Source of the DNA: Blastocatellia bacterium
GTDB taxonomy: Bacteria; Acidobacteriota; Blastocatellia; RBC074
Assembly (NCBI GenBank): GCA_035652435.1
Contig: DASRDU010000014.1
Span: forward strand, 1,359-65,358
DNA: 64,000 bases
Reading direction: 5' to 3'
Part shown: positions 9,299 through 60,758 of the stretch, one piece after another
How the letters are laid out: each line of letters starts with the position of its first letter
Position numbering within the stretch: position 1 is the first letter of the stretch
The notes under the pieces: model-generated
What the model was told of the DNA's origin: nothing
The model's input: only the letters and a program-made list of their open reading frames with translations
The model's database searches: none
Program-made: the position numbers and the translations under genes

Positions 9299-9538
9299 CA
9301 ATGTTGACTCCTTCAACAATACTCAGCTCTCGAATGGAGAATGGTCGCCATCCTGGCACGGCGGCCGGAAAGTAACAATGCCTCAGTCGCCGTGTCGCTA
9401 ATCCGGTTCAAGCAGCCTTACGTTCATCCAAGACACCGCTGTTCCGGCGCGTATTCTTTACAGAACCCGGCCCGGATAACGTCGCATCGCCCGTAAGGGC
9501 GCCGGAGTCATTGATCGCACCGGCAGGGGAGGACAACT

Positions 9539-11678: not shown

Positions 11679-12078
11679 GAGGGGGAGCGAAGCGTAAACA
11701 TTTCGCGAAACGGCAGAGGACGCCGCTGGTGCGGATTTGAATGGCTGGTCCCGGCGCGCGCTCGCCTCCACCGAAGAGTTGGATTACAGTGAAGCGCTCA
11801 GGTTGGTACGGGCCGCGCTTTGCAAACTGCAGATGGAACACGGCCCAAAAATAAATGGGAGCCTGAAATCTGCGAGGACGCGACGGAAGCGCAAAAGATG
11901 CGCTTACAAAGGTTGATTGGGCATACAGGGGAAGTGGGGCCGCGACCACTCTCGCAGTCCTCTTCGCCTGCCGCCCGGCGACGACCTGGCCGGGGCTGGT
12001 GATCGTGCTGGCGGGCGTGCCGGTCTATTACCCGCTCTTGTTACGCGGGGCCGGGAAGGCCCCGAAAGGAGTCACGAC

Positions 12079-14457
12079 GTGAGACGCATTGCGACCGCGG
12101 CCTTCATTCTGCTGATCGCCGCGCAAGTGATCGCGCCCGCCGGTCCGGGCGCGCGGGGAGAAGGGAAGGAGAAAGTTCAGTTCAAGGCGCGCGAATTCGA
12201 GCCGGGCGCCGTCAGGCTGCTCGACGGCCCGTTCCGCGAGGCGATGCTGCGCGATCAGAAATACCTGCTCAGCCTGGACAACGACCGGCTGCTGCACAAT
12301 TTCCGCGTCAACGCCGGGCTGCCCTCGTCGGCCAGGCCGCTCGGCGGGTGGGAGGCGCCCGATGTCGAGTTGCGCGGCCACAGCGTCGGCCACTTTCTGA
12401 CTGCACTGGCGCTGATGTACGCGGGCACGGGCGACGAGCGGTTCAAGGCGAAAGGTGACGCGCTGGTCGCCGAACTGGCCAGAGTGCAGCAGGCGCTGCC
12501 CTCGCGCGGGGCGAATCCCGGATACCTCTCCGCCTTCCCGGAAGAGTTTTTTGACCGCGTGGACAAGCGGCAGCGCGTCTGGGCCCCTTACTACACGCTG
12601 CATAAGATCATGGCCGGTCTGCTCGACATGCGTCAGCTCGCGGGCAACCGGCAGGCGCTCGACGTACTCCTGAAGCTGGCCGACTGGGTCAGGTTCCGCG
12701 TGGACCGGCTGAGCGACGACGAGCAGCAGGCCGTGCTGCAGACCGAATTCGGCGGGATGAATGACGTACTCGCGAGCCTCTACGCTGTCACCGGCAACCC
12801 GGAGTACCTGCGCATCGCGCGCAAGTTCGATCACCGCCGCGTCTTCGACCCGCTCGCGCGCGGCGAAGACCCACTGAGCGGGCTGCACGCCAACACGCAA
12901 ATCCCGAAGGCCATCGGCGCGGCGCGCGAATACGAAGTGACCGGCGAGCAGCGCTACCACGACATCGCCAGCTTCTTCTGGGAGCGCGTGGCCGGGCATC
13001 GTTCCTACGTCATCGGCGGCAACAGCGACAACGAGAGCTTCTTCCCGCCCGAACAGTTCTCGAAGCATCTGGGGGCGTCCAGCACGGAGACGTGCAACAC
13101 CTACAACATGCTCAAACTGTCGCGCCACCTCTTCGCCTGGGAGCCGTCGGCGCGGACGATGGACTTCTACGAACGCGGCCTCTACAACCACATCCTCGCC
13201 TCGCAGGACCCGCCGACCGGGATGATGACCTATTACGTGCCGCTGCGGCCGGGCGCGTTCCGGACTTACTCCACGCCCGACGCTTCGTTCTGGTGCTGCG
13301 TCGGCACGGGGATGGAGAACCATGCGAAGTACGGCGACACGATCTACTTCCGCGCCGATCAGGCCCTCTACGTCAACCTCTTCATCGCCTCGGAGCTGAA
13401 CTGGAAGGAGAAGGGCCTCACCGTCCGCCAGGAGACCCGGTTCCCCGAAGAGGACACGACGAGACTGACGGTCAAAACGGCCAAGCCACTTAAACTGGCC
13501 TTCAGGATTCGCTACCCGTCGTGGGCGCAATCGGGGATGACGCTCGCGGTCAACGGCAGGAAAGAGACCGTGACGGCCGGCCCCGGCTCTTACGTCACGG
13601 TCGAGCGCGAATGGAAGAACGGTGACACCATCGAAGTGAAACTGCCGATGAGTCTGCGGCTCGAAGCGATGCCGGACGACCCGCGGATGGTGGCGTTGTT
13701 GTATGGCCCGATAGTGCTTGGCGGCGATCTGGGCAAAGAGGATCTGACCGACGAGCGGCGCTACGGCCCCAGCGCGCCGCAGATGGGCCGCGTCAAGCCG
13801 ATCCAGGTTCCAGTCTTCATCGGCGAGGTCAGGGACGTGCTGGCGAAGGTGAAGCCGGTGGCGGGCTCGCCGCTCCACTTCCGCACCGAGGGGCTGGCCC
13901 GGCCGCAGGAAGTCTCGCTCGCGCCTTTCTATTCGCTCCACGTCCGCCGGTACAACGTCTACTGGAAAGTCTGGCAGCCGGCCGAGTGGGAGAAGCTCAA
14001 AGGAGAGCTGGCCGCCGCCGAGGCGCGCCGGAAGGTGATCGAGCGCCACACCGTTGACGCCGTCAACCTGAATGACAGGCAGAGCGAGCAGGCCCACAAC
14101 CTGAAGGGTGAAGGGCTCGTGGACGGCGAATTCGACGGCAAACGCTGGCGCGCCGCGCGCGGCTGGTTCAGCTATGAATTGAAAGTCGTGCCGGACAAGC
14201 CGGTGACGCTCGTGTGTACTTACCGCGGCAGCGAAGGCCGCCTGCGTTCATTCGACGTGATCGTGGAAGGCGAGAAGGTCGCCACGCAGACGCTCGAAAT
14301 CCACCCGGGCGAATTGTTCGATTTCGAATACCCGCTGCCCGAAGCGTTGACGCGCGGCAGGCAGCGCATCACGGTCAAATTCCAGGCGCGCCCCGATTCG
14401 ATAGCGGGCAGCCTGTTCGACGTGCGCGTGGCGCAGCTCGATGGAGGAGAAAAGTAG
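12079..14457 (+). CDS. GH127 (DUF1680) beta-L-arabinofuranosidase-like protein with a C-terminal extension.
   Basis: GTG start after an AAGGAG RBS and a signal peptide 'VRRIATAAFILLIAAQVIAPAG'. GH127 (alpha/alpha)6 motifs 'YYTLHKIMAGLLD', 'NTQIPKAIGAAREYEVTG', and the Cys-rich zinc site 'FWCCVGTGMENHAKYGD'. About 200 aa extra at the C terminus. The track ORF start at 11917 is upstream read-through. Confidence 0.85.
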   Translation: MRRIATAAFILLIAAQVIAPAGPGARGEGKEKVQFKAREFEPGAVRLLDGPFREAMLRDQKYLLSLDNDRLLHNFRVNAGLPSSARPLGGWEAPDVELRGHSVGHFLTALALMYAGTGDERFKAKGDALVAELARVQQALPSRGANPGYLSAFPEEFFDRVDKRQRVWAPYYTLHKIMAGLLDMRQLAGNRQALDVLLKLADWVRFRVDRLSDDEQQAVLQTEFGGMNDVLASLYAVTGNPEYLRIARKFDHRRVFDPLARGEDPLSGLHANTQIPKAIGAAREYEVTGEQRYHDIASFFWERVAGHRSYVIGGNSDNESFFPPEQFSKHLGASSTETCNTYNMLKLSRHLFAWEPSARTMDFYERGLYNHILASQDPPTGMMTYYVPLRPGAFRTYSTPDASFWCCVGTGMENHAKYGDTIYFRADQALYVNLFIASELNWKEKGLTVRQETRFPEEDTTRLTVKTAKPLKLAFRIRYPSWAQSGMTLAVNGRKETVTAGPGSYVTVEREWKNGDTIEVKLPMSLRLEAMPDDPRMVALLYGPIVLGGDLGKEDLTDERRYGPSAPQMGRVKPIQVPVFIGEVRDVLAKVKPVAGSPLHFRTEGLARPQEVSLAPFYSLHVRRYNVYWKVWQPAEWEKLKGELAAAEARRKVIERHTVDAVNLNDRQSEQAHNLKGEGLVDGEFDGKRWRAARGWFSYELKVVPDKPVTLVCTYRGSEGRLRSFDVIVEGEKVATQTLEIHPGELFDFEYPLPEALTRGRQRITVKFQARPDSIAGSLFDVRVAQLDGGEK

Positions 14458-14515
14458 CGGCGCGGTTGAGAGCGTAATCAGCCCTCGAATGTAATGCTGC
14501 GTGATGAAGGATTTA

Positions 14516-14610
14516 CCGCAGAGGCGCAGAGAGAGCAGAGACGGCGCAGAGGTGGAAGAGTCTGCCAATGCCTTCTCTGCGCTACCTCCGCGTTCTCTGC
14601 GCCTCTGCGG
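14516..14610. repeat. Nested inverted repeat (17-bp perfect outer stem, ~60-nt interior with duplicated half-sites). It lies between the GH127 stop and the BNR gene start.
   Basis: CCGCAGAGGCGCAGAGA (14516-14532) pairs with TCTCTGCGCCTCTGCGG (14594-14610). The interior carries a second GGCGCAGAG (14543-14551) and a second TTCTCTGCGC (14573-14582). Confidence 0.7.
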
Positions 14611-14669
14611 TGAATCAGGCTCACGCAGCTCGAAGCATCACTTTTTATCCACTCCCTCCTGAGGGAACC

Positions 14670-17384: not shown

Positions 17385-17428
17385 CGCGTGAAATGAACTT
17401 CTGTCTTCTGACGAAGGAGATTACATTG

Positions 17429-18406
17429 ATGCGACTGATCATCAGACTTGCGGCGGGTTGTGCGCTGCTGCTCGTGCCGCTGGCGACGGGCGGCCTGCCT
17501 GTGCATGCCGGCAGAACCGTTGATAACGCCAAAAACTATCGCGTACTCGGCGCGGACAAGAAGCGCGTCGCCATCGTGAACGCGAAGGGCGAAATCGAGT
17601 GGGAGATTCCCAACCCCGCGCCCGAAACGCACGACATCCAGATGTTGCCCAACGGCAACGTCCTCTTCCAGACCAGCTACACGACCGTGGTCGAAGTCAA
17701 CCGTGACAGGCAGGTCGTCTGGCAGTACGAGGCTAAGCCGAAGGAAGGCTACACCGGGCGCGTCGAAATCCACTCGTATCAGAGGCTGAAGGACGGGCTG
17801 ACGATGGTCTCTGAGAGCGGCAACGCCCGCGTCGTTGAGGTGGATCAGAAGGGCGCGATTGCGAGAACGCTCGAACTGACCGTTGACAAGCCGAACCCGC
17901 ACCGCGACACACGCATGGTGCGCAAGCTCGACAACGGCCATTACCTCGTCTGCCACGAGGGCGACGGCAAGCTGCGCGAGTATGACCGGGCGGGCAAGGT
18001 CGTGTGGACTTACGAGGTGGATTTGAACGGCCGGCCCGCCTCGCCGGGCCACGGCCCCGAAGGCCACGGCACCGCGGTCTTCGGCGCGATCCGGCTGCCG
18101 AACGGCAACACGCTGATCGCGGGCGGCAACAACAACCGCGTCATAGAGGTCACGCCCGCGGGTAAGGTCGTCTGGAGCATTGACCAGAAGGAACTGCCCG
18201 GCATCACGCTGGCCTGGGTGACGACGCTCGAACTCCTGCCCAACGGCAACCTGATCTTCGGCAACACGCACGCGGGGCCGGAAAATCCGCAACTCATCGA
18301 GGTCACGCGCGATAAGCGGGTGGTCTGGACTTTCAGGGACTTCCAGAATTTCGGCAACAACCTGGTGGCGGCGCAGGTGCTGACCGAGGGGAAAGTGATT
18401 CGATAG
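17429..18406 (+). CDS. Secreted beta-propeller repeat protein (repeated 'LPNGN' blades; NHL/ASST-like 6-bladed fold).
   Basis: Start at 'MRLIIRLAAGCALLLVPLATGG' after GAAGGAGA. Repeats: 'MLPNGNVLFQTSY', 'KLDNGHYLVCHEG', 'RLPNGNTLIAGG', 'LLPNGNLIFGNTH'. Confidence 0.6.
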   Translation: MRLIIRLAAGCALLLVPLATGGLPVHAGRTVDNAKNYRVLGADKKRVAIVNAKGEIEWEIPNPAPETHDIQMLPNGNVLFQTSYTTVVEVNRDRQVVWQYEAKPKEGYTGRVEIHSYQRLKDGLTMVSESGNARVVEVDQKGAIARTLELTVDKPNPHRDTRMVRKLDNGHYLVCHEGDGKLREYDRAGKVVWTYEVDLNGRPASPGHGPEGHGTAVFGAIRLPNGNTLIAGGNNNRVIEVTPAGKVVWSIDQKELPGITLAWVTTLELLPNGNLIFGNTHAGPENPQLIEVTRDKRVVWTFRDFQNFGNNLVAAQVLTEGKVIR

Positions 18407-18424: not shown

Positions 18425-20992
18425 ATGGTCATCCGCAAATGTATCAAGCTTGTCTTTCTTGCGGGCGTGTGCTGTCTGGTCGTGTTTTTCACCCGGCTGC
18501 CGCGCGTCGGCGCCGAGCTGCGGCAGGATGAGGCGCAGGACATCTCGAGGCAGGCGTACGCCATTCTGAAGAAGAACTGCCTCGCCTGCCACGGCGCGGC
18601 CAGAACTTCCGGCCTCGACCTGCGGACGGGCGAAGGCGTGACGATGGGCGGCGACAACGGACCCGTCATCGTGCCTTCCGACGCCGAGGCCAGCAAACTC
18701 TTCCAACTCGTCACGCACGAGCGGAAGCCGACGATGCCGCCGGGCAAAAAGCTTGCGGACGCCGAGATTGAAACGCTGCGGCGCTGGATCGAAGCGGGCG
18801 CCCCGACCGACGGGTTTGAGAAGACTGCCGCCGCCCCTTCGGGGGATGCCGGCAAAGCCGAACTCGCCAGACTGGAAGATCGTCCCATCACACCCGAAGA
18901 GCGCCGCTACTGGGCGTTCCAGCCGCCGCGGCGCGCGACACCGCCGCGCGTCGCCCCGGCCGACTGGAACAAAAACCCAATAGACACCTTTCTGCTTTCG
19001 GCGATGAAGGCGAAAGGCCTGAAGCCGTCGCCGCGCGCGGACCGCCGCACGCTCGTCCGCCGCGCTTACCTCGATCTGCTCGGCCTGCCGCCGAGCCCCG
19101 AAGAGGTGGCGGCCTTTGAAAAAGACACGGCGCCCGATGCCTGGGAGCGGCTCTTGGAGAGGCTGCTCGCCAGCCCGCATTACGGGGAGCGGTGGGCGCG
19201 CCACTGGCTCGACCTCGTGCGCTACGCCGATTCCGGCGGCTTCGAGTTTGACGTGGACCGGCCCGACGCCTGGCGCTACCGCGATTACGTCGTCAAATCC
19301 TTCAACGACGACAAGCCATATGACCAGTTCGTTAAGGAACAGCTCGCCGGGGATGAGTACGCGCCCGATTCACAGGAGGCGATGATCGCGACCGGGTTCC
19401 TGCGCCTCGGGCCGGAAGGCGGCGGGGGCGGCGAGCGCGGGCGGCAGGATTCGCTTGACGACATCATCACGACCACCACGCTGACGTTCCTGGGGCTGAC
19501 GGTCGGCTGCGCGCGCTGCCATAATCATAAGTTTGACCCGATCCCGCAGAAGGACTATTACCGCATTCAGGCAGTCTTCTACTCGACGCGGCCCGCCAGT
19601 TATCCGCTCGTCGGCGCAGACGTGGTGGCGGCGCACAGGGCCGAAACGCAGCGTATCGAGAGTATGCAGCGGCCATTGAAGAAGGCCAAATCGGATCTGG
19701 AGGCGCCTTACCTGAAGGCGCTCGTGGAAGAGGCCGTCAGCCGGCTGCCCGAATACATGCAAATCGCCTGGCGCACGCCCCCTGAGAAGCGCACGCCCGG
19801 CCAGCGCCTCAACGTGCAGCAGATCAGGAAGACGCTCGAAGACGATGCGCTCTCGCAGAAGCTGACCGAAAAAGACATCGTCGCACGCATGACGCCCGAG
19901 GACAGGCGCAGGCACGAGGAGCTGGTCGAACAGATCAAGACGCTCGAACGGCAGAAGCCGAAGCCGTACCCGACGGCGCGGGCCATCGGAGAGGACGGAC
20001 CCCGGGCGCGGCCTTCGTATTTCCTGCATCGCGGCAGCGTGGACGCGAAAGGATCGCTCGTCAGCCCGGGCGTACTCTCGGTCGCCTGCGAGAGCGAATA
20101 CCAGTTCCCGGCGCCGCCCGCGAACGCGAAATCGAGTTTCAGGCGGCGTGGGTTTGCCGAGTGGCTGGTCGCACCAGACAACCCGCTCACCGCGCGCGTC
20201 ATGGTCAACCGCATCTGGCAGCACCATTTCGGCGAGGGCATCGTCCGCACGCCCGGCAATTTCGGCCGGATGGGTGAGCCGCCCACACACCCCGAACTGC
20301 TCGACTGGCTGGCCACGGAGTTCGTCGCGCGCGGCTGGAGCATTAAGCAGATGCACCGCCAGATGATGACCTCGCAGGCCTATCAGATGGCGAGCAATGA
20401 CACGCCCGCGAACGCGGCCATTGACCCCGAGAATCGCTTCTTCTGGCGCATGCCGCGCGTGCGGCTGGAAGCCGAGATCATCCGCGATCAGATTCTGGCC
20501 GTCGCGGGCAACCTGGATCGCACGCTGGGCGGCCCGTGCGTCTATCCGTACATTGATCCGAAGCTTTTCCAGTCGAGTACCAAACGCACGTGGCCGGGTA
20601 AGCCCGACGATGACCCTTCAACATGGCGGCGTAGCCTGTACGTCTACTCCAAGCGGAGCATCCGCTACCCGCTTTTTGAAGCCTTCGACCAGCCGAACCT
20701 GATCAACTCCTGCGAACGCCGTAACCGCTCGACCATCGCGCCGCAGGCGCTGCTGCTGATGAACAACAACTTCGTCATCATGGAGTCGAAGTTCTTCGCC
20801 GAGCGTTTGCGGAAGGAGGCGGGCGACGACGCGCGGGCGCAGGCCGAACGGGCCTTTCGGCTGACGCTGGCGCGCGCGCCGACTGCGTTTGAGCTGACGA
20901 AAGCCGTGGAGTTCATTCGGAGCGGCCCGGACGGGCTCGCCGGATTCTGTCAGGCGTTATTCAATCTGAATGAATTCGTCTACTGGCAATAA
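18425..20992 (+). CDS. PSCyt1-DUF1549-PSCyt2-DUF1553 (PSD1) domain protein (the 'planctomycete cytochrome c' family).
   Basis: 'CLACHGAARTSGLDLRT' (heme-like CxxCH), DUF1549 'GERWARHWLDLVRYADSGGFEFD', 'CARCHNHKFDPIPQKDYYRIQAVF', and C-terminal DUF1553 'SCERRNRSTIAPQALLLMNNNF'. Confidence 0.85.
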   Translation: MVIRKCIKLVFLAGVCCLVVFFTRLPRVGAELRQDEAQDISRQAYAILKKNCLACHGAARTSGLDLRTGEGVTMGGDNGPVIVPSDAEASKLFQLVTHERKPTMPPGKKLADAEIETLRRWIEAGAPTDGFEKTAAAPSGDAGKAELARLEDRPITPEERRYWAFQPPRRATPPRVAPADWNKNPIDTFLLSAMKAKGLKPSPRADRRTLVRRAYLDLLGLPPSPEEVAAFEKDTAPDAWERLLERLLASPHYGERWARHWLDLVRYADSGGFEFDVDRPDAWRYRDYVVKSFNDDKPYDQFVKEQLAGDEYAPDSQEAMIATGFLRLGPEGGGGGERGRQDSLDDIITTTTLTFLGLTVGCARCHNHKFDPIPQKDYYRIQAVFYSTRPASYPLVGADVVAAHRAETQRIESMQRPLKKAKSDLEAPYLKALVEEAVSRLPEYMQIAWRTPPEKRTPGQRLNVQQIRKTLEDDALSQKLTEKDIVARMTPEDRRRHEELVEQIKTLERQKPKPYPTARAIGEDGPRARPSYFLHRGSVDAKGSLVSPGVLSVACESEYQFPAPPANAKSSFRRRGFAEWLVAPDNPLTARVMVNRIWQHHFGEGIVRTPGNFGRMGEPPTHPELLDWLATEFVARGWSIKQMHRQMMTSQAYQMASNDTPANAAIDPENRFFWRMPRVRLEAEIIRDQILAVAGNLDRTLGGPCVYPYIDPKLFQSSTKRTWPGKPDDDPSTWRRSLYVYSKRSIRYPLFEAFDQPNLINSCERRNRSTIAPQALLLMNNNFVIMESKFFAERLRKEAGDDARAQAERAFRLTLARAPTAFELTKAVEFIRSGPDGLAGFCQALFNLNEFVYWQ

Positions 20993-20996
20993 ACAT

Positions 20997-21100
20997 CCCC
21001 GGGAGCGCACGCGGCCCGCGTGCTGGTTTGGGTCTGAAGCCCCTTGAGCGACAGATGAGTCTCTCGTCACTGGCACGCGAGCCGCGTGCGCTCCCGGGAT
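20997..21100. terminator. Long GC-rich hairpin between the PSD1 and DUF1501 genes: an 18-bp perfect inverted repeat that extends to ~28 bp with bulges, and a 65-nt loop.
   Basis: CCCGGGAGCGCACGCGGC (20998-21015) pairs with GCCGCGTGCGCTCCCGGG (21081-21098). The flanking CGCGTGC/GCACGCG extend the stem. No U-tract. Confidence 0.6.
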
Positions 21101-21111
21101 AGATACTGGCA

Positions 21112-22524
21112 ATGAAGCAATACTTCTGTTCGAGACGAGAGCTTTTGCAGCAGCTGGGCGGCGGCATCGCCGGCGTCGCCTTCGCCGACCTGCTCTGCCG
21201 CAACGGGCTGCTGGCGCAGACCAGATCGCCGCTCGCGCCCAAAGCGCCGCACTTCCCGGCCAAAGCCAAAGCGGTGATCTCGATCTTCTGTTACGGCGGC
21301 GTCAGCCAGGTGGACACCTTCGACCCCAAGCCCGAACTGCTCAGACGCCAGGGCGAGGCGATGACGGGCGTGGGCGAAGTGCGCCCGACGATGGGCACGC
21401 CCGGCGGGCTGATGCCCTCGCCGTGGGAGTTCAAAAAGCGCGGGCAGTGCGGGATGGAGATTTCAGAGCTGTTCCCTCGCGTGGCCGAACACGCCGACGA
21501 CCTGGCGCTGATCCGCTCGATGACGGCGCTCAGCCCGGCGCACGGCCCCGCGCTATTCCAGATGAACACGGGCAGCATCCTCGCCGGGCACCCGAGCGTC
21601 GGCAGCTGGGTGACGTACGGGCTGGGCAGCGAGAACGAAAATCTCCCGGGCTTCATCGTCTTCACGGATTATCGCGGCGGCCCGATCAACGGCGCGCCCA
21701 ACTGGGGCAACGGCTACATGCCGGCGGCGTATCAGGGCACGCCGTTCCGCGACACCGGCGACCCGATCGTTGACCTGCGCCCGCCCGAAGGGCGCACGCC
21801 GGAAGGGCAGCAGAAATGGCTGCGGCTCCTGCGCGAACTCAATGAAAAGCACCTCGACCACAACCCCGAAGACGGCGAGCTGGCGGCGCGCATCCACTCC
21901 TATGAACTGGCTTTCCGCATGCAGACGCACGCCACCGACGCGATTGACATCAGCAGGGAATCCGCCGCGACGCTGAAAGCTTACGGCGTGGGCGAGCAGC
22001 CGACCGATTACTTTGGCCGCCAGGCCCTGATGGCACGGCGGCTGGTCGAACGCGGCGTGCGCTTCGTGCAGATCTTTTCGGGCGGCGGCAACTTCGAGCC
22101 GAGCTGGGACGCGCACTGGGATTTGAAGGGCAACCACGGCCTGCATTGCGCCGAGACCGACAAGCCCATCGCCGGCCTGATCAGTGACCTCAAGGGCCGC
22201 GGCCTCTTCGATTCGACGCTCATCCTCTGGCACGGCGAGTTCGGGCGCCTGCCGATTTCCGAGCGGATGGACGGGCGCGATCACAACGCCGCAGGCTTCA
22301 GCGTCTGGCTGGCCGGGGGCGGCGTCAAAGGCGGCACGGTCGTCGGCGCGACTGACGAGTACGGCTACCGCGCCGTCGAGAACAAAAAGACGATCTACGA
22401 ACTGCACGCAACGTTGCTGCACCTGCTCGGGCTCGATTACGAGAAGCTGACCTACCGTTTCGGCGGGCGCGACATGCGGCTGACCGATGTCCACGGGCGC
22501 GTGATCAGGGAGGTTCTGGCCTGA
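21112..22524 (+). CDS. DUF1501 domain protein (sulfatase-like fold, Tat-secreted). It is the canonical partner of PSD1/DUF1553 proteins.
   Basis: 'SRRELLQQLGGGIAGVAFADL' Tat leader. DUF1501 core 'ISIFCYGGVSQVDTFDPKP', and C-terminal 'ILWHGEFGRLP...DHN'. Confidence 0.85.
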   Translation: MKQYFCSRRELLQQLGGGIAGVAFADLLCRNGLLAQTRSPLAPKAPHFPAKAKAVISIFCYGGVSQVDTFDPKPELLRRQGEAMTGVGEVRPTMGTPGGLMPSPWEFKKRGQCGMEISELFPRVAEHADDLALIRSMTALSPAHGPALFQMNTGSILAGHPSVGSWVTYGLGSENENLPGFIVFTDYRGGPINGAPNWGNGYMPAAYQGTPFRDTGDPIVDLRPPEGRTPEGQQKWLRLLRELNEKHLDHNPEDGELAARIHSYELAFRMQTHATDAIDISRESAATLKAYGVGEQPTDYFGRQALMARRLVERGVRFVQIFSGGGNFEPSWDAHWDLKGNHGLHCAETDKPIAGLISDLKGRGLFDSTLILWHGEFGRLPISERMDGRDHNAAGFSVWLAGGGVKGGTVVGATDEYGYRAVENKKTIYELHATLLHLLGLDYEKLTYRFGGRDMRLTDVHGRVIREVLA

Positions 22525-22879
22525 GAGTCAAAGGGGCGATTCAGCCGGCCCCTCACTAAGCTCATTCAAGCCTGCTTAAGCCGGTACAAGACCTGCTGAC
22601 GAAGGCAGTGTTTTATTGACACTGTTCTCACTTCTTAAGGAATCGCGTGACGGGTTTGATCGAAATTGATAGAAATGAGCATTCCCGAAAATCGCGGATC
22701 AACTGACTGACACTACCTTTAGCTGGCTTTGCGGGGTTCAGTGGGCCGGACGCCGCGTCCTTTGGCAGACGACAACAGGCCGGATGTGGCGTCCGGTTCC
22801 GAATAAATTTGTGTTCCCCGCTCGAAGGCGGGGGAGGGGATTGGACTCTCACCTATCAATTACCTGAGGGGGGTTGGTT

Positions 22880-25800
22880 ATGGAACGACCACATGCGAGA
22901 AAGCTGAATCAGAGCCGGGCAGTGATCGGAATGTTGTTGCTGCTGGCCGTACTCTTAATTCCTGCCACCACGGCCCGGGCGCAGTTGCGGATTGTCGGGT
23001 CGGTCTCCGGGACGGTCCAGGATTCGACCGGGGGCGTGATCCCGAACGCCAGGGTTGTTTTGAAAGACTCGAAAACCGGCATCACGAAGGAAGTCACCTC
23101 GACCGAGAGAGGTACATTCCTGTTTCCGGATCTGCCCAGCGGCTTGTACGAGGTGACGGTGACGGCGCCGGGATTTCGGACGGCGCTCCTCAATAACATC
23201 TCCGTTTCGACCAACCAGACGACGGACGTGCGGATCAGCATGGAGGTCGGCGCCACGTCGGAAACCATCACGGTGAGTGGCGGAGATGCGCAGACGCTCG
23301 AAACCTCCTCTCAACTGGTGGCGAGTACCCTGACGACACAGACGCTCGCTCAACTGCCGGTCGCCAATCGCAGCAATGTTCTGGCGCTGGCCCGGCTCGC
23401 TCCCGGCGCCTCACCTCCCACGGGCGGCAGCACGCGCTACAACAACCTGGCGGGCGGCGCGGTCAACGTCACCGTGGACGGCATCAACAATGCCTCGAAT
23501 GGGTTCAAGAGCGGCGGGACCGTCTTCTTCGCAACCGTGCCTTCCCGCCTGGGGGCGGTGGAAGAGGTGACGGTGGAGACCGGCGGTCTGGGCGCGGACT
23601 CCGGCGCGCAGAGCGGCGCGAATATCAAATTCACCACCCGGCGCGGCGGCAACCAGTATCACGGCAGCGGCTTTTACGAATTGCGCAGCGAGCAGCTCAG
23701 CGCGAACAGCTGGTCGAGAAACGCCCAGGGGTTGCCGCGAGTTTACAACCGCAATCACGAGTTCGGCGGGAATTTCGGCGGGCCGCTGGTTCCATTCTTC
23801 GGGTTGAGAGAGAAGCTCTTCTTCTTCGTCAACTATGAATACCGGTACAACCCGCAATTCAACAGCACGACACTGGCCATCCCGACGCCCGACGCGCTGA
23901 AAGGCATCTACACGTATGTCGTCAGCGGCACGACCAATCAGCTGCGGACGGCCAACGTGCTGGACCTGGCCGCCGCGCGGGGCCTGCGGACGACGCTCGA
24001 TCCGGTCGCGCAGGCAATCCTCAACATCAATAACCAGATTCCGAAATACAGCCGGCAGATTGCGGATAACGATTTCAACCGCGATTTCTACACCTGGGAT
24101 GCGGAGAACAATCTGAAACAATACTTCCCCACCACGCGGGTGGATTATTTCGTGACGCCGAAACAGCAGCTGACGTTCACCTGGAACTACTACCACAGCT
24201 GGCAGCCGGGCGCGCGGCGCCTGCCGGTGCCGGACATCGAAAGAACCAACCCGTTCCGCATCGGCTATTTCGTCTATTCCGGCGCGCTGCAATCCACGTT
24301 CGGGACGCGCACCTTCAACGAATTCCGCTACGGCGTGCAGCACAGCGGGGACACCAACACGCGCGATGAGTACGGCCCCTACTATCAGTTCAACAACAAG
24401 CCGTTGCGCATCGGCGCGACGTTGCCGTTCAGCCTCGCGAGCCCGCAGGGCCCTCTGGTTCCGTTCATTGACCAGCAGAACGTGACGGGCCGGCACTTCA
24501 TCACGACGATGTACGACACGATGACGCTCAACCGCGGGCAGCATACGATCACGCTCGGTGGCAGCTACCGCAAAACCTCCTGGAACGATGTCGCCGTGGT
24601 TTATCAGGTCCCGACGTACGCCACCGGCACGCCGTCGGGCGATCCGCTGCAAGTGTCACAGGCGTACACCACCACCACCCTGCCCGGGATCAACAGCACC
24701 CTGCTGGGCGATCCCCTGGCGCTCTACAACCTGTTGACCGGCAGAGTCGCCTCGTCAGGCTTCACCCGTGTCGTCAACCCTGAGACGCTCAAATACGACG
24801 GCATCCAGGAGCAGAACTACACCTGGACCAACTCGAAAATGGGCGGCCTCTACGCGCAGGATCGCTGGCGCATCCGGCGAAGCCTGACCTTGAATTACGG
24901 CTTACGCTGGGAGGTGCAGGGCCCGATGAAGGACGGCAAGGGGCTGACGGCAGTCCCGGATCTGGCGAGCCTGTTCGGGCCTTCGAAGAGATTGTTTGCG
25001 CCGGGCGACCTGAGCGGTAACAACAACCCGACGGTCGAAGTCGGCCGGGTGCCCTACGACACGGACTGGCTCAATTTCGCGCCCAACATCGGTTTTGCCT
25101 GGAATCCCAATAAAACCGACGGCCTGCTGGGCAAAGTGCTGGGCGGTCAGAAGACCGTCTTCCGTGGTTCCTATTCGACCATTGTCTACGACGAAGGGAC
25201 GCAGTTTTTTGCGGCCAACTTGGGGCCGAATGCAGGCAAAACAATCGGGGCCACCACGCTCATACCGGGGACGGCGGGCGCGACCAGTCTGCCGGCCTTC
25301 TACACGCTCTCGGACATCGTGGGCAATCCGCTGACCGTTTCAAATTTCGCGTTCACGACGACCGAGTACAAGAAGGTCATCAACCAGGCGGATCAGACTT
25401 TCGCGCGGACGATCAATGGTTTTGACCCCAACCTGCGCGCGCCGTACACCGAAAATTATACCTTCGGCATTCAGCGCGAGTTGTGGAAGAACACGGTGCT
25501 GGAAGTTCGCTACGTGGGCAACCAGTCGAAACTCGCCTGGCGCACCAGCAATTTGAACGAGGTCAATATCTTTGAAAATGGCTTCCTGAACGAGTTCAAG
25601 AACGCGAAGAAGAACCTGGACATTAACGTGGCGGCCGGCGTCAACAGCTTCCAGAATCTGGGGCGTTCGGGGCAGGTGGCGCTGCCGATCTTCGACGCCG
25701 CTTTCGGCGCTCGCGGCGCGCTCGCGGCAATCGCGGCCGGCTCCGGTTACCAGTCCACGGCCTTCATCACCAACCTGCAAAACGGCGAGGCCGGCGCCCT

Positions 25801-26779
25801 GGCCAACACGCTGGCCACTAACCAGAACTACGTGTGCCGCATGTTCGGCAGCAACTTCAGCCCCTGCGCCCGGGTGCTGCCGACCGCCAACGCACCGGGG
25901 CCTTACCCGATCAACTTCTTCCTGCTCAACCCCTACGTGGCCGGCCGCATGAGCATTGTGGATAACGGCGGCTGGCACGGCTACAATGGCCTGCAGATTC
26001 AGTTCCGGCAGCGGCTCTCGCAGGGAGTGAACTGGACGACCAATTACACCTTCAGCAAGAGCCTGACCAATCTGGCCGCAGACAACCAGAACCAGAGCCT
26101 CGATTATGTGACTTTGCGTGATCCCGGACTGAACCGCCGGTTGTCTCAGTTCGACATCCGCCACGTCATCCAGACCTACGGGACCTATGAGCTGCCAATC
26201 GGTCGAGGGAAGTGGCTGGACCTTAATAACCGCTGGCTCGATACCGCAATCGGCGGCTGGACGCTGGGCTCGATCTTTGTGTTTAATACGGGCCAGCCCA
26301 TCCAGTTGACGGGGGGATTTCAGACCGTCAACAATAGCAACAACCCGACGCAGAACGGCGTCAGGCTGGCACCGGGCGTCACGCTCGACCAGATTCAGAA
26401 GCTGTTTGACGCGGAGCGGACGCGCCTGACCGGCAGAGCAGGCATTACGGACCTGCAACGGCTGGCCGTTGATCCGAGCCTGATCGGCCCCGACGGCCGC
26501 GCCAACCCGCAGTTCCTGCTCCCGAACACGACTCCCGGTGAATTCGGGCAGTTGCTTTTCCTGCGCGACAAGAATACGTTCCAGTGGGACGTTTCGCTGA
26601 CGAAGGCATTCAGGATCACTGAGAAGACGCGTTTCGAGCTGTTTGCCACCTTCAACAACGTCCTGAATCACCCGCGGTGGGGCTTCCCCGATACGAACGT
26701 CTTCAGCACGACGTTCGGCGTGGTGGGCGCTCCCTCAGGGAATCGCACGATCAACCTGCGCGGGACGCTCAGCTTCTGA
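22880..26779 (+). CDS. Carboxypeptidase-regulatory-domain TonB-dependent receptor-like outer-membrane protein (SusC-analogous acidobacterial type), intact, ~1300 aa.
   Basis: Signal peptide, an N-terminal CarbopepD_reg-like fold ('RIVGSVSGTVQDSTGGVIPNARVVL...GLYEVTVTAPGF'), a plug-like region ('NGFKSGGTVFFATVPS'), a long beta-barrel, and a C-terminal 'TINLRGTLSF' (terminal aromatic). The ATG at 22880 lies 7 nt after a GAGGGGGG RBS. Confidence 0.85.
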   Translation: MERPHARKLNQSRAVIGMLLLLAVLLIPATTARAQLRIVGSVSGTVQDSTGGVIPNARVVLKDSKTGITKEVTSTERGTFLFPDLPSGLYEVTVTAPGFRTALLNNISVSTNQTTDVRISMEVGATSETITVSGGDAQTLETSSQLVASTLTTQTLAQLPVANRSNVLALARLAPGASPPTGGSTRYNNLAGGAVNVTVDGINNASNGFKSGGTVFFATVPSRLGAVEEVTVETGGLGADSGAQSGANIKFTTRRGGNQYHGSGFYELRSEQLSANSWSRNAQGLPRVYNRNHEFGGNFGGPLVPFFGLREKLFFFVNYEYRYNPQFNSTTLAIPTPDALKGIYTYVVSGTTNQLRTANVLDLAAARGLRTTLDPVAQAILNINNQIPKYSRQIADNDFNRDFYTWDAENNLKQYFPTTRVDYFVTPKQQLTFTWNYYHSWQPGARRLPVPDIERTNPFRIGYFVYSGALQSTFGTRTFNEFRYGVQHSGDTNTRDEYGPYYQFNNKPLRIGATLPFSLASPQGPLVPFIDQQNVTGRHFITTMYDTMTLNRGQHTITLGGSYRKTSWNDVAVVYQVPTYATGTPSGDPLQVSQAYTTTTLPGINSTLLGDPLALYNLLTGRVASSGFTRVVNPETLKYDGIQEQNYTWTNSKMGGLYAQDRWRIRRSLTLNYGLRWEVQGPMKDGKGLTAVPDLASLFGPSKRLFAPGDLSGNNNPTVEVGRVPYDTDWLNFAPNIGFAWNPNKTDGLLGKVLGGQKTVFRGSYSTIVYDEGTQFFAANLGPNAGKTIGATTLIPGTAGATSLPAFYTLSDIVGNPLTVSNFAFTTTEYKKVINQADQTFARTINGFDPNLRAPYTENYTFGIQRELWKNTVLEVRYVGNQSKLAWRTSNLNEVNIFENGFLNEFKNAKKNLDINVAAGVNSFQNLGRSGQVALPIFDAAFGARGALAAIAAGSGYQSTAFITNLQNGEAGALANTLATNQNYVCRMFGSNFSPCARVLPTANAPGPYPINFFLLNPYVAGRMSIVDNGGWHGYNGLQIQFRQRLSQGVNWTTNYTFSKSLTNLAADNQNQSLDYVTLRDPGLNRRLSQFDIRHVIQTYGTYELPIGRGKWLDLNNRWLDTAIGGWTLGSIFVFNTGQPIQLTGGFQTVNNSNNPTQNGVRLAPGVTLDQIQKLFDAERTRLTGRAGITDLQRLAVDPSLIGPDGRANPQFLLPNTTPGEFGQLLFLRDKNTFQWDVSLTKAFRITEKTRFELFATFNNVLNHPRWGFPDTNVFSTTFGVVGAPSGNRTINLRGTLSF

Positions 26780-26796: not shown

Positions 26797-26872
26797 GGGA
26801 CAGGCGCTCACCACGGAGGGCAGGAGAGGGTCACGGAGGCTTATCCCGCCCTCCGTGGTGAGCGCCTGTCCC
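26797..26872. terminator. Perfect 25-bp inverted repeat hairpin (26-nt loop) 18 nt downstream of the TBDR stop. Probable intrinsic terminator or REP-like element.
   Basis: GGGACAGGCGCTCACCACGGAGGGC (26797-26821) pairs with GCCCTCCGTGGTGAGCGCCTGTCCC (26848-26872). No trailing U-run. Confidence 0.65.
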
Positions 26873-26958: not shown

Positions 26959-27040
26959 GGTAGCGCAAACTGTCGAGTTTGCGTCGTTTCGATAACGAAC
27001 CGCTTGATGAAGCGACACAAACTCGACAGTTTGCGCTACC
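26959..27040. repeat. Second perfect 23-bp inverted repeat (36-nt loop) in the same intergenic region, upstream of the DUF885 gene.
   Basis: GGTAGCGCAAACTGTCGAGTTTG (26959-26981) pairs with CAAACTCGACAGTTTGCGCTACC (27018-27040). Confidence 0.65.
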
Positions 27041-27267
27041 CTTTGTGTGACTTCAGTCTCTTCCGGGGTGCCTGGCTCTAAAGTTTGGACTACTTTTGCA
27101 AGAAGTCTGCCGAACCCTTAATGGTCGCGGCTCGGAAGGTTACGCCACGCCCATGAAGGGCCGGCACAACTGGAAATTGAGTCTCAAAACCGGAGGGGCA
27201 GGATTGAGGGGCGAAGGGACAAGGACTTTGTCTCTTCGCCCGTTTGTGCTAACCGGGATGGCTGATT

Positions 27268-28932
27268 ATGCCGGATCACGATTTTGATCAGCTTCATCAA
27301 CTGGCGAGTGACTTCTGGCGGTGGCGCGCCTTTCACCAGCCGAATTCGAGTGACGACCTCCCGCGCGTTGAACGCCCGCGCAGCTGGGAGCCTGACTGGT
27401 CGGCCGCCGCCGTCGCGCGCCAGCGCCATGCGCTCGCCATGTTCGAAGCGCGCTGGCGGGAGATAGACGTCTCCACATGGCCGGTCCCGCAACGGGTGGA
27501 CTACAGGCTGATCGGGTCGGCGCTGGCGCGCGTGCGCTGGGAGCTGGACGTCCTGCGTTCCTGGGAGCGCAATCCGAGGTTCTACGTCTATCAGTCGCTC
27601 GGACAGCTCTTTGAAGAGTTGCTCAGGAACAAGCCTTTCGACCATGACCGCAGCGCGGAGGTCGTCAATTGCTTCAGGCGGGTCCCCGGACTGCTCGCCG
27701 ACGGGAAAGCCAACCTGGCAGAGACTGCCGTGAGGCCTTTCGCGGCGGCGACGCTGGAGGTTCTGGAAGACATCGGCCCGCGGCTGAGGAAGGTGGCGCA
27801 TGAACTCAAGCCACTGCTCGCGGGCGAAAGCGCCGGCCGGCTTGCCCCGGGTGCGGAGGAAGCCGTCACGGCCCTGGAGTCGTTCCGCGACTGGCTCCGG
27901 GAGCGGCTGCCCGCGATGACGGAAGAGATGGCGGTCGGGTGTGACGGCTACGCATGGTTTCTCCGCCACGTCGCGCTGATGCCGTTCACCTCAGGGCAAC
28001 TGCTGGCCATGGGCAGGCAGGAGTGGGAGCGGTCGGTCGCCTGCGAGGCCATCGCGCGGGAGCGGGCGAAGGGCTCGCCCGAACTCCCACTCTTCCCCGA
28101 TCAGGCGACACAGATGGCCCGCGAGGAGGAGGACGAGAAAGCGATCCGGCGGTTTCTGGAGGAGAACGATCTTCTGACAGTGCCTGCTCGGGTGCGGCAT
28201 TACCGCAACCTGCCGCTCCCGGCGTACGTCGAGCCGCTCGCCGGGCTCGGCGTGGTGGATGACCTGACCTCCCCCACGCGGCTTGATGAGTACGGCATCC
28301 GTTACATTCCGCAGCCCTCGCCCGCCCTGGGCTACTTCGAGCTTTCCTCGGCGCGCGACCCTCGCCCGCTCATCGTGCATGAAGGTGTCCCCGGACATTA
28401 CTTTCAGATGTCGCTTGCGTGGGCGCACGAAGACCCGATCCGCCGGCACTACTACGATTCGGGACCCAACGAAGGCATCGGCTTTTACGCCGAAGAGATG
28501 CTGCTCGAGGCTGGTCTGTTTGACTCGAGTCCCCGGACGCGGGAGATAATCTACAACTTCATGCGCCTGCGCGCCCTGCGGGTCGAGGTGGACGTCAGGC
28601 TCGCACTCGGGGCGTTCAGCATTGATGAGGCAACGGAGTGCCTGCGGGCCAGAGCGCCGATGGATTACGAGACGGCGCGGGCCGAGGCCATCTTCTTCGC
28701 CTCACTGCCCGGACAGGCCATCACCTACCAGATCGGCAAGCTGCAAATCATAAGGTTCCTGGCCGACGCGCGGCAGGCGATGGGCGAGCGCTTCAGCCTG
28801 CGCGCCTTCCACGACTACCTCTGGAAGAACGGGAACATCCCCATCGCGCTGCTGCGGTGGGAGTACCTCGGGCTGGAGGACGAAGTCACCAGTCTCGACG
28901 CCGATCAGCCGGATACTACACCCGGACGCTGA
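27268..28932 (+). CDS. DUF885 family protein (putative metallo-peptidase-like).
   Basis: DUF885 hallmark 'HEGVPGHYFQ' and overall ~550-aa length. No signal peptide is evident. Confidence 0.7.
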   Translation: MPDHDFDQLHQLASDFWRWRAFHQPNSSDDLPRVERPRSWEPDWSAAAVARQRHALAMFEARWREIDVSTWPVPQRVDYRLIGSALARVRWELDVLRSWERNPRFYVYQSLGQLFEELLRNKPFDHDRSAEVVNCFRRVPGLLADGKANLAETAVRPFAAATLEVLEDIGPRLRKVAHELKPLLAGESAGRLAPGAEEAVTALESFRDWLRERLPAMTEEMAVGCDGYAWFLRHVALMPFTSGQLLAMGRQEWERSVACEAIARERAKGSPELPLFPDQATQMAREEEDEKAIRRFLEENDLLTVPARVRHYRNLPLPAYVEPLAGLGVVDDLTSPTRLDEYGIRYIPQPSPALGYFELSSARDPRPLIVHEGVPGHYFQMSLAWAHEDPIRRHYYDSGPNEGIGFYAEEMLLEAGLFDSSPRTREIIYNFMRLRALRVEVDVRLALGAFSIDEATECLRARAPMDYETARAEAIFFASLPGQAITYQIGKLQIIRFLADARQAMGERFSLRAFHDYLWKNGNIPIALLRWEYLGLEDEVTSLDADQPDTTPGR

Positions 28933-29025
28933 AACTGGAACGCCATTCGGTCATCGAATATTTACTTGTCGACGCAATGTTCAATCGAACAAAGCCGGCG
29001 TGTTAACGCCTCGCAGGAAATCGCA

Positions 29026-50931: not shown

Positions 50932-51165
50932 CGTTCGAGCGATTGAGGGGCGACCCGGCGCAGGGGATCGGAATTATAAGGCGGTCCTGACCACCGCCGT
51001 GGGTGGCTTCAATACTAATCGCGTTCAAGCAGGCTTACTGAGATTCAAGACTCCTTACCGGGGCGTCTGTTTTACTGCTGACTCACGGCATACGGCAGAT
51101 TGAGAAAATGTTCCGGCCCCGCTCACGGCGACCGGGAACAGCTGGCACTGGGAGAAAAGGATTGC

Positions 51166-54763: not shown

Positions 54764-54785
54764 TCAACACGACTATTCACCGAGG

Positions 54786-60698: not shown

Positions 60699-60758
60699 AG
60701 GGGAGGGGGATGCGGCGATAGTCTCTCGCCCGACCCTGCTGACCGAATAAGGATAGAA

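Follow-up and report, generated by a model that had tools for sequence, protein, structure and literature searches.

A PSCyt1-PSCyt2(DUF1549)-PSD1(DUF1553) gene and a DUF1501 gene lie next to each other in the genome of a member of the Blastocatellia (Acidobacteriota), in the midst of genes for glycoprotein digestion. What do the two encoded proteins contribute there? The pair adds a member to a module that is known but uncharacterised, and the literature that we found on PSCyt/PSD1 or DUF1501 family members consists of genomic surveys only, with no experiments. The two-gene module has been described for Planctomycetes, Verrucomicrobia and Lentisphaerae (Kamneva et al. 2012, PMC3542564); PMC2754498 and PMC3542564 credit Studholme et al. 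2004 with the first naming of the PSCyt and PSD1 domains, and R. baltica has 41 family copies (PMC2754498). In our analysis the family comprised 26,636 clusters at 50% identity. All features of the 2012 module were found here: a PF07394 protein with a Tat motif, a tightly adjacent PSCyt1/PSCyt2/PSD1 partner with CxxCH, predicted signals on the proteins and the same domain architecture. In contrast to the module described in 2012, the host is an acidobacterium, an additional CBM, Big_2 or WD40 domain is missing from the partner, a palindromic insertion separates the two genes, and the pair lies in an island of GH127, peptidase and barrel genes instead of the described PVC contexts. The connection to intracellular membranes that was suggested in 2012 (PMC3542564) is irrelevant to this locus.

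Gene content and order at the locus

The window, that is the whole analysed stretch of 64,000 nucleotides, reads as an island for the utilisation of arabinose- and hydroxyproline-rich glycoproteins. A Pfam scan of its ORFs revealed a set of glycoside hydrolases (three GH127, two GH51, a GH43 and a GH31) next to a sulfatase, S9 and M20 peptidases and DUF885; a hydroxyproline catabolism set (proline-racemase/DAO/DHDPS) and Leloir genes are also present. The sequence-only reading, which had placed the pair within a glycan-utilisation operon, was right about its company. Three ORFs (8753-9319, 42605-43507 and 43557-45401) are without any Pfam match. GH127 enzymes target the beta-L-arabinofuranosides of extensin and AGP (PMC10850190, PMC7263609). 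The hypBA locus of Bifidobacterium longum (PMC7263609, PMC10850190) likewise combines GH127 with GH43 (alpha-L-arabinofuranosidase) and transport genes and presumably serves hydroxyproline-linked arabinosides. Unlike hypBA, the window has no match to GH121, the beta-L-arabinobiosidase family, among the ORFs scanned with Pfam, uses an outer-membrane barrel and not an ABC importer alone for uptake, and adds peptidases, hydroxyproline catabolism and the cytochrome-DUF1501 pair. It also differs from a Bacteroidota-type SusC/SusD locus, since none of the 39 window ORFs scanned matched the SusD family of lipoproteins.

A more fitting description of the pair is that it closes, on the 3' side, a co-directional string of GH127, BNR and propeller genes, after which a transporter-led string begins. 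All genes of both strings discussed here are on the plus strand, and the Pfam assignments of the pair and its neighbours are strong family matches, not chance similarities. The first string opens with a beta-L-arabinofuranosidase-like protein, GH127a (11917..14457; catalytic domain E 3e-133), which also contains a middle domain, DUF4986 and DUF6805 and has orthologues at the same position in loci L023, L025, L014 and L093. It is followed by a palindromic element (14510..14616) with 42-nt arms that are 83% complementary. Because this element overlaps the start of the longest ORF at 14568, the next gene probably starts at ATG 14670. It extends to 17384 and codes for a protein with a signal peptide and a double propeller of the BNR/Asp-box, sortilin-Vps10-like type (N-terminus MKRLIPWLAIVLAG; Pfam Sortilin-Vps10 E 7e-31, BNR), which resembles PDB 3b7f, a 'glycosyl hydrolase, BNR repeat' (E 1e-12), and matches the NCBIfam F510_1955 glycosylhydrolase family below the cut-off. 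Only 8 nt further begins the gene of a 337-aa beta-propeller (17393..18406) that is Mal s 1-like or arylsulfotransferase (ASST)-like (Pfam Mala_s_1-like E 1e-15, Arylsulfotran_2, Arylsulfotrans) and is related to the uncharacterised protein PDB 3no2 (E 3e-15).

Pfam and the ORF strands bore out, to the nucleotide, the earlier placement of a PSD1(DUF1549/DUF1553)-DUF1501 pair at 18425-22524, its domain calls and its co-directional position between the BNR/propeller genes and a barrel gene; the short 5' overlap that had been claimed does not exist. The propeller stop at 18406 is separated from the start of the cytochrome gene at 18425 by an 18-nt spacer with AGGAGG, and 119 nt separate the cytochrome gene from the DUF1501 gene. 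Most of this gap is occupied by a MITE/REP-like palindrome (20994..21103; arms 20998-21023 and 21073-21098), for which RNA folding gave a dG of -76 kcal/mol (z -8.1). It is flanked by the direct repeat TACTGGCAAT(A/G)AA at 20981-20993 and 21104-21116, a target-site duplication, and its arm sequence occurs twice in L016, too. At the insertion point, stop and start overlap without interruption in L021 and L024 (...CAATGA...). Judged from these sequences, the gap is a secondary insertion that split an ancestral ATGA overlap. The pair has a GC content of 0.65, the same as the upstream genes.

A weak candidate terminator, a hairpin with a T-run (22593..22608, +), lies 69 nt past the DUF1501 stop; terminator-like sites in total were not in excess (21 versus 16.5 +/- 4.3 expected from shuffling). 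About 355 nt beyond the DUF1501 stop starts the gene of a TonB-dependent-receptor-like outer-membrane barrel of the acidobacterial CarboxypepD_reg + OMP_b-brl_4 type (22880..26779, longest ORF from TTG 22874; E 6e-122), which is also the first same-strand downstream neighbour of DUF1501 in nine other loci, plus L093/L094 and L095. Between it and the DUF885 gene (27268-28932) lie long palindromes at 26797-26872 and at 26959-27040 and, at 27209-27241, the strongest of the terminator-like sites. The DUF885 gene is followed by a second GH127 gene, GH127b (28966-31416). Orthologues of GH127b come after the barrel gene in L016, L019, L021, L023, L024, L025 and L093.

The cytochrome-like and DUF1501 proteins

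The first gene of the pair (18425..20992) codes for an 855-aa protein with an N-terminal signal or anchor helix and three domains that all score above cut-off (PSCyt1 E 2e-12, PSCyt2/DUF1549 2e-86, PSD1/DUF1553 1e-96). An identical protein (P0162) is labelled 'PSD1 and planctomycete cytochrome C domain-containing protein [Blastocatellia bacterium]', and the AF2 model is all-alpha (pLDDT 73). PSCyt1 carries the first haem c motif, C52-L-A-C55-H56 (18578..18592). Together with M104 as the candidate distal ligand and a cytochrome c fold, this corresponds to a class I c-type cytochrome, and the domain is similar to the FoxE cytochrome. M104 does not vary among the 60 aligned orthologues, and a single one of the more distant paralogues examined lacks it. 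The second motif, C362-A-R-C365-H366 in PSCyt2 (19508..19522), lies within the stretch CARCHxHKFDP, which orthologues share without change; paralogues with 26-40% identity have CA(R/Q/E)CH or CISCH here, so that both CxxCH motifs are retained even at this distance. The 855-aa protein is a putative haem binder.

The 470-aa product of the second gene (21112..22524) matches the full DUF1501 profile (PF07394, positions 1-390; E 2.4e-150, 501.5 bits versus a cut-off of 27) and has an alkaline-phosphatase-superfamily fold. Its residues 7-12 (S-R-R-E-L-L; 21130..21147) form a twin-arginine motif that is family-wide (of 79 representatives, at least 97% keep R8 and 90-97% keep R9), and export by Tat is predicted. 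The fold is shared with the S1 formylglycine-dependent sulfatases (PF00884) and, at 12-15% identity, with nucleotide pyrophosphatases/phosphodiesterases (NPP) and PafA-type alkaline phosphatases. The sequence-only reading had considered a sulfatase-like hydrolase with a cytochrome-like binding partner. In such an interpretation DUF1501 would cleave a sulfate or phosphate (di)ester off a glycan or glycoprotein in the manner of sulfatases or phosphodiesterases, and the PSCyt-PSD1 protein would mainly be a binding or anchoring partner. Against this, the C/S-x-P-x-R motif is absent throughout the 470 residues, and DUF1501 is the sole Pfam match, with none to Sulfatase (PF00884) or Phosphodiest at E <= 1e-3. 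The Ca2+-ligating Asp-Asp after strand 1 of the S1 sulfatases is replaced by Y61-G62 and the Asp-Asn/His after a late core strand by E376-F377, which keeps one acidic ligand only. Further differences from the S1 sulfatases are the predicted Tat export and the obligatory haem partner. Compared to the NPP and PafA-type enzymes, DUF1501 has no conserved Thr/Ser nucleophile at the canonical place, no Pfam match to them, and a D-x-H instead of a D-x3-H ligand spacing. The hydrolase interpretation also leaves the obligatory partner with two CxxCH motifs (77 of 80 loci) and recurrent thiol-redox neighbours unexplained, and we consider it possible but doubtful.

The catalytic site appears to be retained in altered form, as judged from sequence/profile alignment and predicted secondary structure. 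At least 90-97% of the 79 representatives (40-55% identity) retain S65, D71, K73, H144, D333, H335, E376, R379, R389 and H391. Of the positions compared with the Thr/Ser nucleophile and the bimetallo Asp/His ligand set of the NPP and alkaline phosphatase enzymes, S65, D333-x-H335 and D390-H391 are conserved; the canonical helix N-terminus has no conserved Ser/Thr and is occupied by H144. Spacing and secondary structure place the invariant H144 at the formylglycine position (P122...H144...T153-G154 versus P60...C81...T90-G91); hhalign aligns this position with the non-conserved T93 at low confidence, and its N-terminal register conflicts with the H144 placement. The near-invariance of the residues at core-strand ends, the active-site region of this fold, argues against a non-enzymatic role. 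In that case the pair would assist the TonB-dependent-type barrel in the periplasm by binding ligands or by signalling or transport, perhaps in passing on or sensing imported fragments, and DUF1501 would be a pseudo-enzyme receptor. The Tat signal and the haem motifs would have no explanation in such an accessory, and Planctomycetes are not known to have many TonB-dependent receptors. They nevertheless carry about 41 copies of the family (PMC2754498), and an accessory role is decidedly improbable.

Recurrence of the neighbourhood in acidobacteria

The locus was compared with 80 acidobacterial loci whose orthologues are 67-91% identical. The cytochrome gene is directly 5' of DUF1501 in 77 of them, mostly at distances between a 4-nt overlap and about 45 nt; in some loci an AhpC/TSA-redoxin or DinB_2 gene sits between the two. 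Full synteny occurs in three Blastocatellia loci (L023, L025 and L093) and partial synteny in seven more. Genes for TBDR-like barrels, the ASST-like propeller, M20, S9, BNR and GH127 are back beside the pair in Bryobacterales, Vicinamibacterales and Terriglobia, in shuffled arrangements and orientations. They come close to it: ASST-like genes lie within 5 kb in 11 of 11 cases, M20 in 9/9, BNR in 8/9 and GH127 in 10/13. The ASST-like propeller is the commonest first upstream neighbour (six loci, always on the same strand), M20 follows immediately 3' in seven loci, the barrel is adjacent in 14, and in L038 unk300b, S9 and the pair form one string. Same-strand spacers measure 5-150 nt and indicate shared transcription units. 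This 'enrichment' is recurrence under rearrangement and not a statistic.

The suggested role in polysaccharide or glycoprotein processing is partly supported. In 33 of the 80 loci the available flanks contain no gene of the island's families. A second recurrent context contains pyruvate kinase, Na+/H+ antiporter, GFO/IDH/MocA and FGGY kinase genes, and a divergent DsbA-like gene is found upstream of the pair in nine loci. The pair could be a periplasmic module of general use in redox or cell-envelope processes, which was inherited at this position in Blastocatellia and just happens to lie amid abundant catabolic genes. The 33 loci and the housekeeping contexts speak for this, as do the high background of barrels and CAZymes in acidobacterial genomes, the restriction of full synteny to close relatives (88-91% identity) and the inverse correlation of PSCyt and glycoside hydrolase density at the genome level (He et al. 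2017, PMC5615132). Against it speak the return of the same families in varied orders and orientations, their concentration within 5 kb and the short same-strand spacers, and we regard a setting without functional meaning as improbable.

The redox hints that were counted are the CxxCH motifs, the candidate Met, the FoxE likeness, the Tat motif and the thiol-redox genes near the pair.

A proposed function of the pair

We propose, at a probability of roughly 40%, that the two proteins are a periplasmic haem-coupled metalloenzyme pair which acts on an imported glycopeptide or oligosaccharide; its chemistry is a proposal only. The two genes would encode two subunits of one enzyme that would form a complex. 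The PSCyt-PSD1 subunit would be a c-type (di)haem protein, exported by Sec and probably anchored in the membrane, which transfers electrons and perhaps also assists in holding the substrate, and the DUF1501 subunit a Tat-exported metalloprotein with a non-canonical active site in an alkaline-phosphatase-superfamily fold. Periplasmic dehydrogenase complexes such as the membrane-bound gluconate and fructose dehydrogenases follow the same subunit logic, by analogy and not by homology: a Tat-exported, cofactor-bearing catalytic subunit is combined with an adjacently encoded, Sec-exported haem c subunit that passes electrons to the respiratory chain. Their catalytic subunits are flavo- or quinoproteins, and we know of no redox-active enzyme with an alkaline phosphatase fold.

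In this orthologous group the pair would operate during the periplasmic breakdown of a glycoprotein from plants or algae that is rich in arabinose and hydroxyproline and may be sulfated. The neighbouring TonB-dependent-type barrel would admit the fragments, which would be processed jointly with GH127, the BNR and ASST-like propellers and the M20/S9 peptidases. The pair's own share would be a step that is coupled to redox chemistry, is not a glycosidase reaction and acts on a group that is anionic or recalcitrant in another way. A similar role, periplasmic carbohydrate breakdown parallel to glycoside hydrolases by a different mechanism, was proposed for freshwater Verrucomicrobia, in which PSCyt genes lie beside sulfatases, CBMs and GHs (He et al. 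2017, PMC5615132). Sulfatase genes are nearby in both cases; that study was a genome-level survey, whereas ours follows one orthologous group in 80 genomes and names specific partner families (GH127, BNR, ASST-like propeller, M20/S9 and barrel). The recurrence of these neighbours in related soil bacteria suggests substrates to test and does not reveal the chemistry.

A further-reaching version, which we consider unlikely, is that the pair represents a new enzyme class, a haem c-dependent, Tat-exported oxidoreductase with an alkaline phosphatase fold, in which His144 or Ser65 and a His/Asp/Glu metal site replace formylglycine. It would cleave or modify linkages beyond the reach of glycoside hydrolases and peptidases, for example where arabinosylated hydroxyproline-rich glycoproteins carry groups that are sulfated, cross-linked or bridged by phosphodiesters. 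If this were true, the tens of thousands of family members would be an oxidative counterpart of CAZymes in Planctomycetes, Verrucomicrobia and Acidobacteria, and the present locus would name the first candidate substrates.

Gene order around the pair in the window and in related loci

The PSCyt1-PSCyt2(DUF1549)-PSD1(DUF1553) gene at 18425-20992 (+) and the DUF1501 gene at 21112-22524 (+) lie exactly where the sequence-only reading had placed them, as judged from the window ORFs and Pfam. The former encodes a protein of 855 aa with PSCyt1 at residues 52-106, PSCyt2/DUF1549 at 185-389 and PSD1/DUF1553 at 573-830, and the latter a protein of 470 aa that is matched by DUF1501 across the whole profile (Pfam, E 2e-150). 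The database entry for an identical cytochrome protein, from a 206-kb MAG contig, is titled 'PSD1 and planctomycete cytochrome C domain-containing protein [Blastocatellia bacterium]', which places the host in the acidobacterial class Blastocatellia. An exact-sequence database look-up with the cytochrome protein of the window gave no entry, and one with DUF1501 led only to two 4-kb contigs. NCBIfam gave no name for the pair, the barrel, the DUF885 protein or the propeller.

Coordinates and Pfam also bear out that the pair is co-directional between BNR/propeller genes upstream and a TonB-dependent-receptor-like (TBDR-like) barrel downstream. The plus-strand string begins with a GH127 gene (11917-14457) and a 212-nt spacer containing a 107-nt palindrome. 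The BNR/sortilin-like propeller gene (probable start ATG 14670, end 17384) and, after 8 nt, the ASST/Mal s 1-like propeller gene (17393-18406) follow. A 5' overlap of the pair had been described as well; there is none, since the propeller stop at 18406 lies 18 nt before the cytochrome start at 18425, in a spacer with AGGAGG. The cytochrome gene is separated by 119 nt from the DUF1501 gene, which is followed by a spacer of ~355 nt, the barrel gene (22880-26779), a 488-nt spacer that contains two palindromes and the strongest terminator-like site, a DUF885 gene (27268-28932), 33 nt and a second GH127 gene (28966-31416), the end of the string. In a consensus scan none of the spacers between genes of the string had a promoter-like site, and the window had no more terminator-like sites than shuffled sequence, so that independent transcription is neither supported nor refuted. 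The pair and the three genes upstream have the same GC content (0.65), and that of the barrel region is lower (0.61-0.62). The idea that the pair entered the locus horizontally was rejected because of the GC shared with the upstream genes and the age of the synteny.

For the neighbourhood sample one genome per species was scanned, which gave 80 loci (numbered L) with DUF1501 orthologues of 67-91% identity from Blastocatellia, Bryobacterales, Vicinamibacterales, Terriglobia and a few MAGs labelled otherwise. ORFs were called in each locus and compared with the window proteins, the rest was clustered, and recurrent clusters were named by Pfam. The cytochrome gene lies immediately 5' of DUF1501 in 77/80 loci. 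The complete order GH127-BNR-propeller-pair-barrel-GH127 is present in L023 and L025 and, sulfatase and prolyl isomerase included, in L093, an independently annotated 290-kb metagenome contig; synteny is partial in L014, L016, L019, L020, L021, L024 and L067. The ASST-like propeller occurs in 10 loci, every time within 5 kb of the pair, and in 6 of them it directly precedes the pair on the same strand. In 7 loci the gene that directly follows the pair on the same strand encodes an M20 peptidase; S9/DPP-IV is found in 6 (contiguous as unk300b-S9-pair in L038), BNR in 8 and GH127 in 11, and a sulfatase is directly beside the pair in L077 and L090. In 14 loci the gene next to the pair is the barrel, 13 times in the same orientation.

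One or more of GH127, propeller, BNR, S9, GH51, M20 and unk614 (a window ORF without Pfam match) are present in 33/80 loci, and in 47/80 if barrels are counted. The remaining loci, mainly those of more distant orthologues, offer other contexts: pyruvate kinase, Na+/H+ antiporter, DsbA-like thioredoxin, HbpS-like protein, GFO/IDH/MocA and FGGY kinase. The link with island families rests on recurrence under rearrangement, not on a statistic against a random-gene background. That the genes are co-located without functional meaning, for which these other contexts would speak, appears quite unlikely to us in view of this recurrence.

Several loci differ in layout. L003-L012, the contexts of the very close DUF1501 relative P0004 (85% identical), share a different conserved string of PSCyt-PSD1, DUF1501, Na+/H+ exchanger, M20 peptidase, a 531-aa unknown, GH2, GDSL lipase and TBDR-like barrel, by its predicted genes again a peptidase/glycosidase/transporter context. 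Some Bryobacterales loci carry a triplet of DUF1501 (48% identity), PSCyt-PSD1 and DUF1501 (74%), that is, two different DUF1501 genes either side of one cytochrome gene (L053 5936-11413, L058 5973-11413, L059 5932-11413). Several 68-90% identical orthologues with acidobacterial-type synteny (L046, L061, L083, L020-L025, L048) stem from MAGs labelled Acidimicrobiia, Heliomicrobium or Limnocylindrales, which suggests mis-binning or mislabelling, not transfer. In L095 (3667-18998) pair and barrel are immediately preceded by genes for a Reg_prop/Y_Y_Y histidine kinase and a GerE-type response regulator, a layout resembling a putative glycan-sensing two-component system. Its gene order is PSCyt-PSD1, a 179-aa ORF, a frame-shifted DUF1501 and the TBDR-like barrel, with a Y1 transposase close by.

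A palindrome between the two genes of the pair

The 119-nt gap contains a 110-nt palindrome with 26-nt arms (RNA dG -76 kcal/mol, z -8.1), bordered by the direct repeat TACTGGCAAT(A/G)AA (window 20981-21116; duplication of 10-13 nt). At the same point L021 and L024 read ...CAATGA..., the cytochrome stop overlapping the DUF1501 ATG. The palindrome is therefore a MITE/REP-like insertion with target-site duplication, sitting exactly in the ancestral ATGA stop/start overlap. It divided a translationally coupled pair and left both reading frames intact. The spacing is mostly -4 to ~+45 nt among 77 measurable orthologous pairs. Larger spacers are found almost only in those loci that are most similar to the window (Blastocatellia MAGs for the most part), and carry unrelated inserts, namely DinB_2, AhpC/TSA-redoxin, TnpB/IS605, a PIN toxin gene, a possible alpha/beta hydrolase and a short AT-rich repeat (L013 2790-3359, L018 9368-9961, L067 8733-10004, L015 2740-4047, L022 8702-9664, L063 8163-8594, L023 9870-10000). 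The 119-nt spacer as a sign of an independent promoter was rejected in favour of a mobile palindrome inserted in the ATGA overlap; since the gap is thus secondary and the other large spacers hold unrelated inserts, it is no evidence for separate regulation.

In most of these nearest loci the spacer between PSD1 and DUF1501 is a hot spot for insertions. The arm sequence is also present twice in L016, on either side of a GH127 gene. Further long intergenic palindromes of mutually unrelated sequence, with 21-42-nt arms, lie at 14510-14616, 26797-26872, 26959-27040 and 40182-40228; Rfam had no match anywhere in the window, intergenic palindromes included. The one at 14510-14616 overlaps the start of the longest BNR ORF, whose true start is probably ATG 14670, with the predicted signal peptide MKRLIPWLAIVLAG.

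The DUF1501 site, its predicted haem partner and a possible function

Profile comparison (hhalign) relates DUF1501 to S1 sulfatases with 95% probability; a sequence search of the PDB with DUF1501 found no match. A sulfatase-like hydrolase had been considered a possibility, with a metal site lacking formylglycine to be looked for in DUF1501. The C/S-x-P-x-R motif is absent, and the canonical metal ligands are altered: the sulfatase Asp-Asp after strand 1 aligns with Y61-G62, and the Asp-Asn/His after the late core strand with E376-F377. hhalign puts the non-conserved T93 at the formylglycine position with low confidence, and its N-terminal register, likewise of low confidence, conflicts with a placement of the nucleophile position based on secondary structure. 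The predicted strand 131-138 and helix 144-153 would put the invariant H144 there, because the spacing P122...H144...T153-G154 matches the sulfatase P60...C81...T90-G91.

Among about 78 DUF1501 representatives (40-55% identity), G62, G63, S65, D71, K73, D129, H144, W332-D333-x-H335, D350, D359, E376-F377-G378-R379, R389, H391 and D415 are kept in at least 90-97%. The pattern suggests an active site still in use but with changed chemistry, rich in His/Asp/Glu (putative metal site) and Arg/Lys (putative anionic substrate), and does not resemble that of classical sulfatases or phosphatases. A profile of paralogues (25-91% identity), meant to widen the alignment, again gave 67-87% identical orthologues as the 120 matches listed; the AF2 alignment for DUF1501 is therefore shallow. 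In each locus the cytochrome partner has evolved faster than DUF1501 (e.g. 72-79% versus 88-91% identity), and the FoxE cytochrome domain was its sole match in a sequence search of the PDB. Thiol-redox genes recur at the pair across orthologous loci, which fits cytochrome c maturation or redox chemistry.

We propose, at a probability of about 0.4, that the pair is a two-subunit periplasmic enzyme in which DUF1501 chemistry is coupled to a haem c partner and acts on imported fragments. DUF1501, as a Tat-exported metalloprotein of AP fold, would carry out the chemistry, and the Sec-exported, probably anchored, haem c protein would link it to electron transfer. The substrate would be fragments brought in via the adjacent barrel, and the pair would work alongside GH127, BNR, propeller and peptidases. 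A partner-assisted esterase, the idea of the sequence-only reading, sits poorly with the altered ligands; we consider it unlikely. The pair might instead serve the neighbouring transporter as an accessory that binds or senses without catalysis, for which a conserved active site would hardly be expected; this seems very unlikely.

The catabolic island and candidate substrates

The 64-kb window holds glycosidase genes of GH43, GH51 (two), GH127 (three) and GH31, one S1 sulfatase, M20 and S9/DPP-IV peptidases, DUF885, three TBDR-like barrels and GntR, AraC and DeoR regulators, as well as a proline-racemase-family/DAO/Pyr_redox_2/DHDPS-family set and GalT, GHMP kinase, epimerase and sugar-binding protein. 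At 50110-55694 an AraC-family regulator precedes proline-racemase-family (51100-52119), DAO, Pyr_redox_2 and DHDPS-family genes, which looks like a hydroxyproline catabolism set; a minus-strand ORF at 51055-51828 is probably spurious. At 56178-62737 a DeoR regulator, galactose-1-phosphate uridylyltransferase, an inositol-monophosphatase-like protein, a GHMP (galactokinase-like) kinase, an NAD-dependent epimerase and a periplasmic sugar-binding protein form a predicted Leloir-type sugar module at the island's edge. Two ORFs of 300 and 614 aa at 42605-45401 (-), between a TBDR-like barrel and the S9/DPP-IV peptidase, had no match in Pfam or NCBIfam; their homologues adjoin the pair elsewhere (unk300b in L038; unk614 in L046, L061 and L070). 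GH127 takes beta-L-arabinofuranose off extensin/AGP arabinosides, also arabinan and RG-II (PMC10850190, PMC7263609, PMC6085000). Read from its gene content, the island would target a glycoprotein of plants or algae that is rich in arabinose, galactose and hydroxyproline.

A description of the two-gene module, covering its Tat and haem signatures as well as its expansion, dates from 2012 (PMC3542564). Sulfatase/CBM/GH neighbours led in 2017, and again in 2022, to the proposal that it acts on carbohydrates (PMC5615132; 10.1101/2022.05.18.492586). Our literature searches found no functional characterisation of either family. New here are the acidobacterial neighbourhood series at orthologue level, pointing to candidate substrates and partner enzymes, a residue-level case against DUF1501 as a formylglycine sulfatase, and the explanation of the split pair by a mobile element. 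The active-site comparison cautions against naming DUF1501 proteins sulfatases. Of the protein families without known function, DUF1501 and DUF1549/DUF1553 belong to the largest: the library searched has 26,636 DUF1501 clusters at 50% identity, and the PSCyt2 and PSD1 domains reach ~41 copies in single planctomycete genomes (PMC2754498). Since the pair lies in an interpretable catabolic island in this orthologous group, extensin or arabinogalactan-protein glycopeptides and their sulfated/phosphorylated derivatives become concrete candidate substrates.
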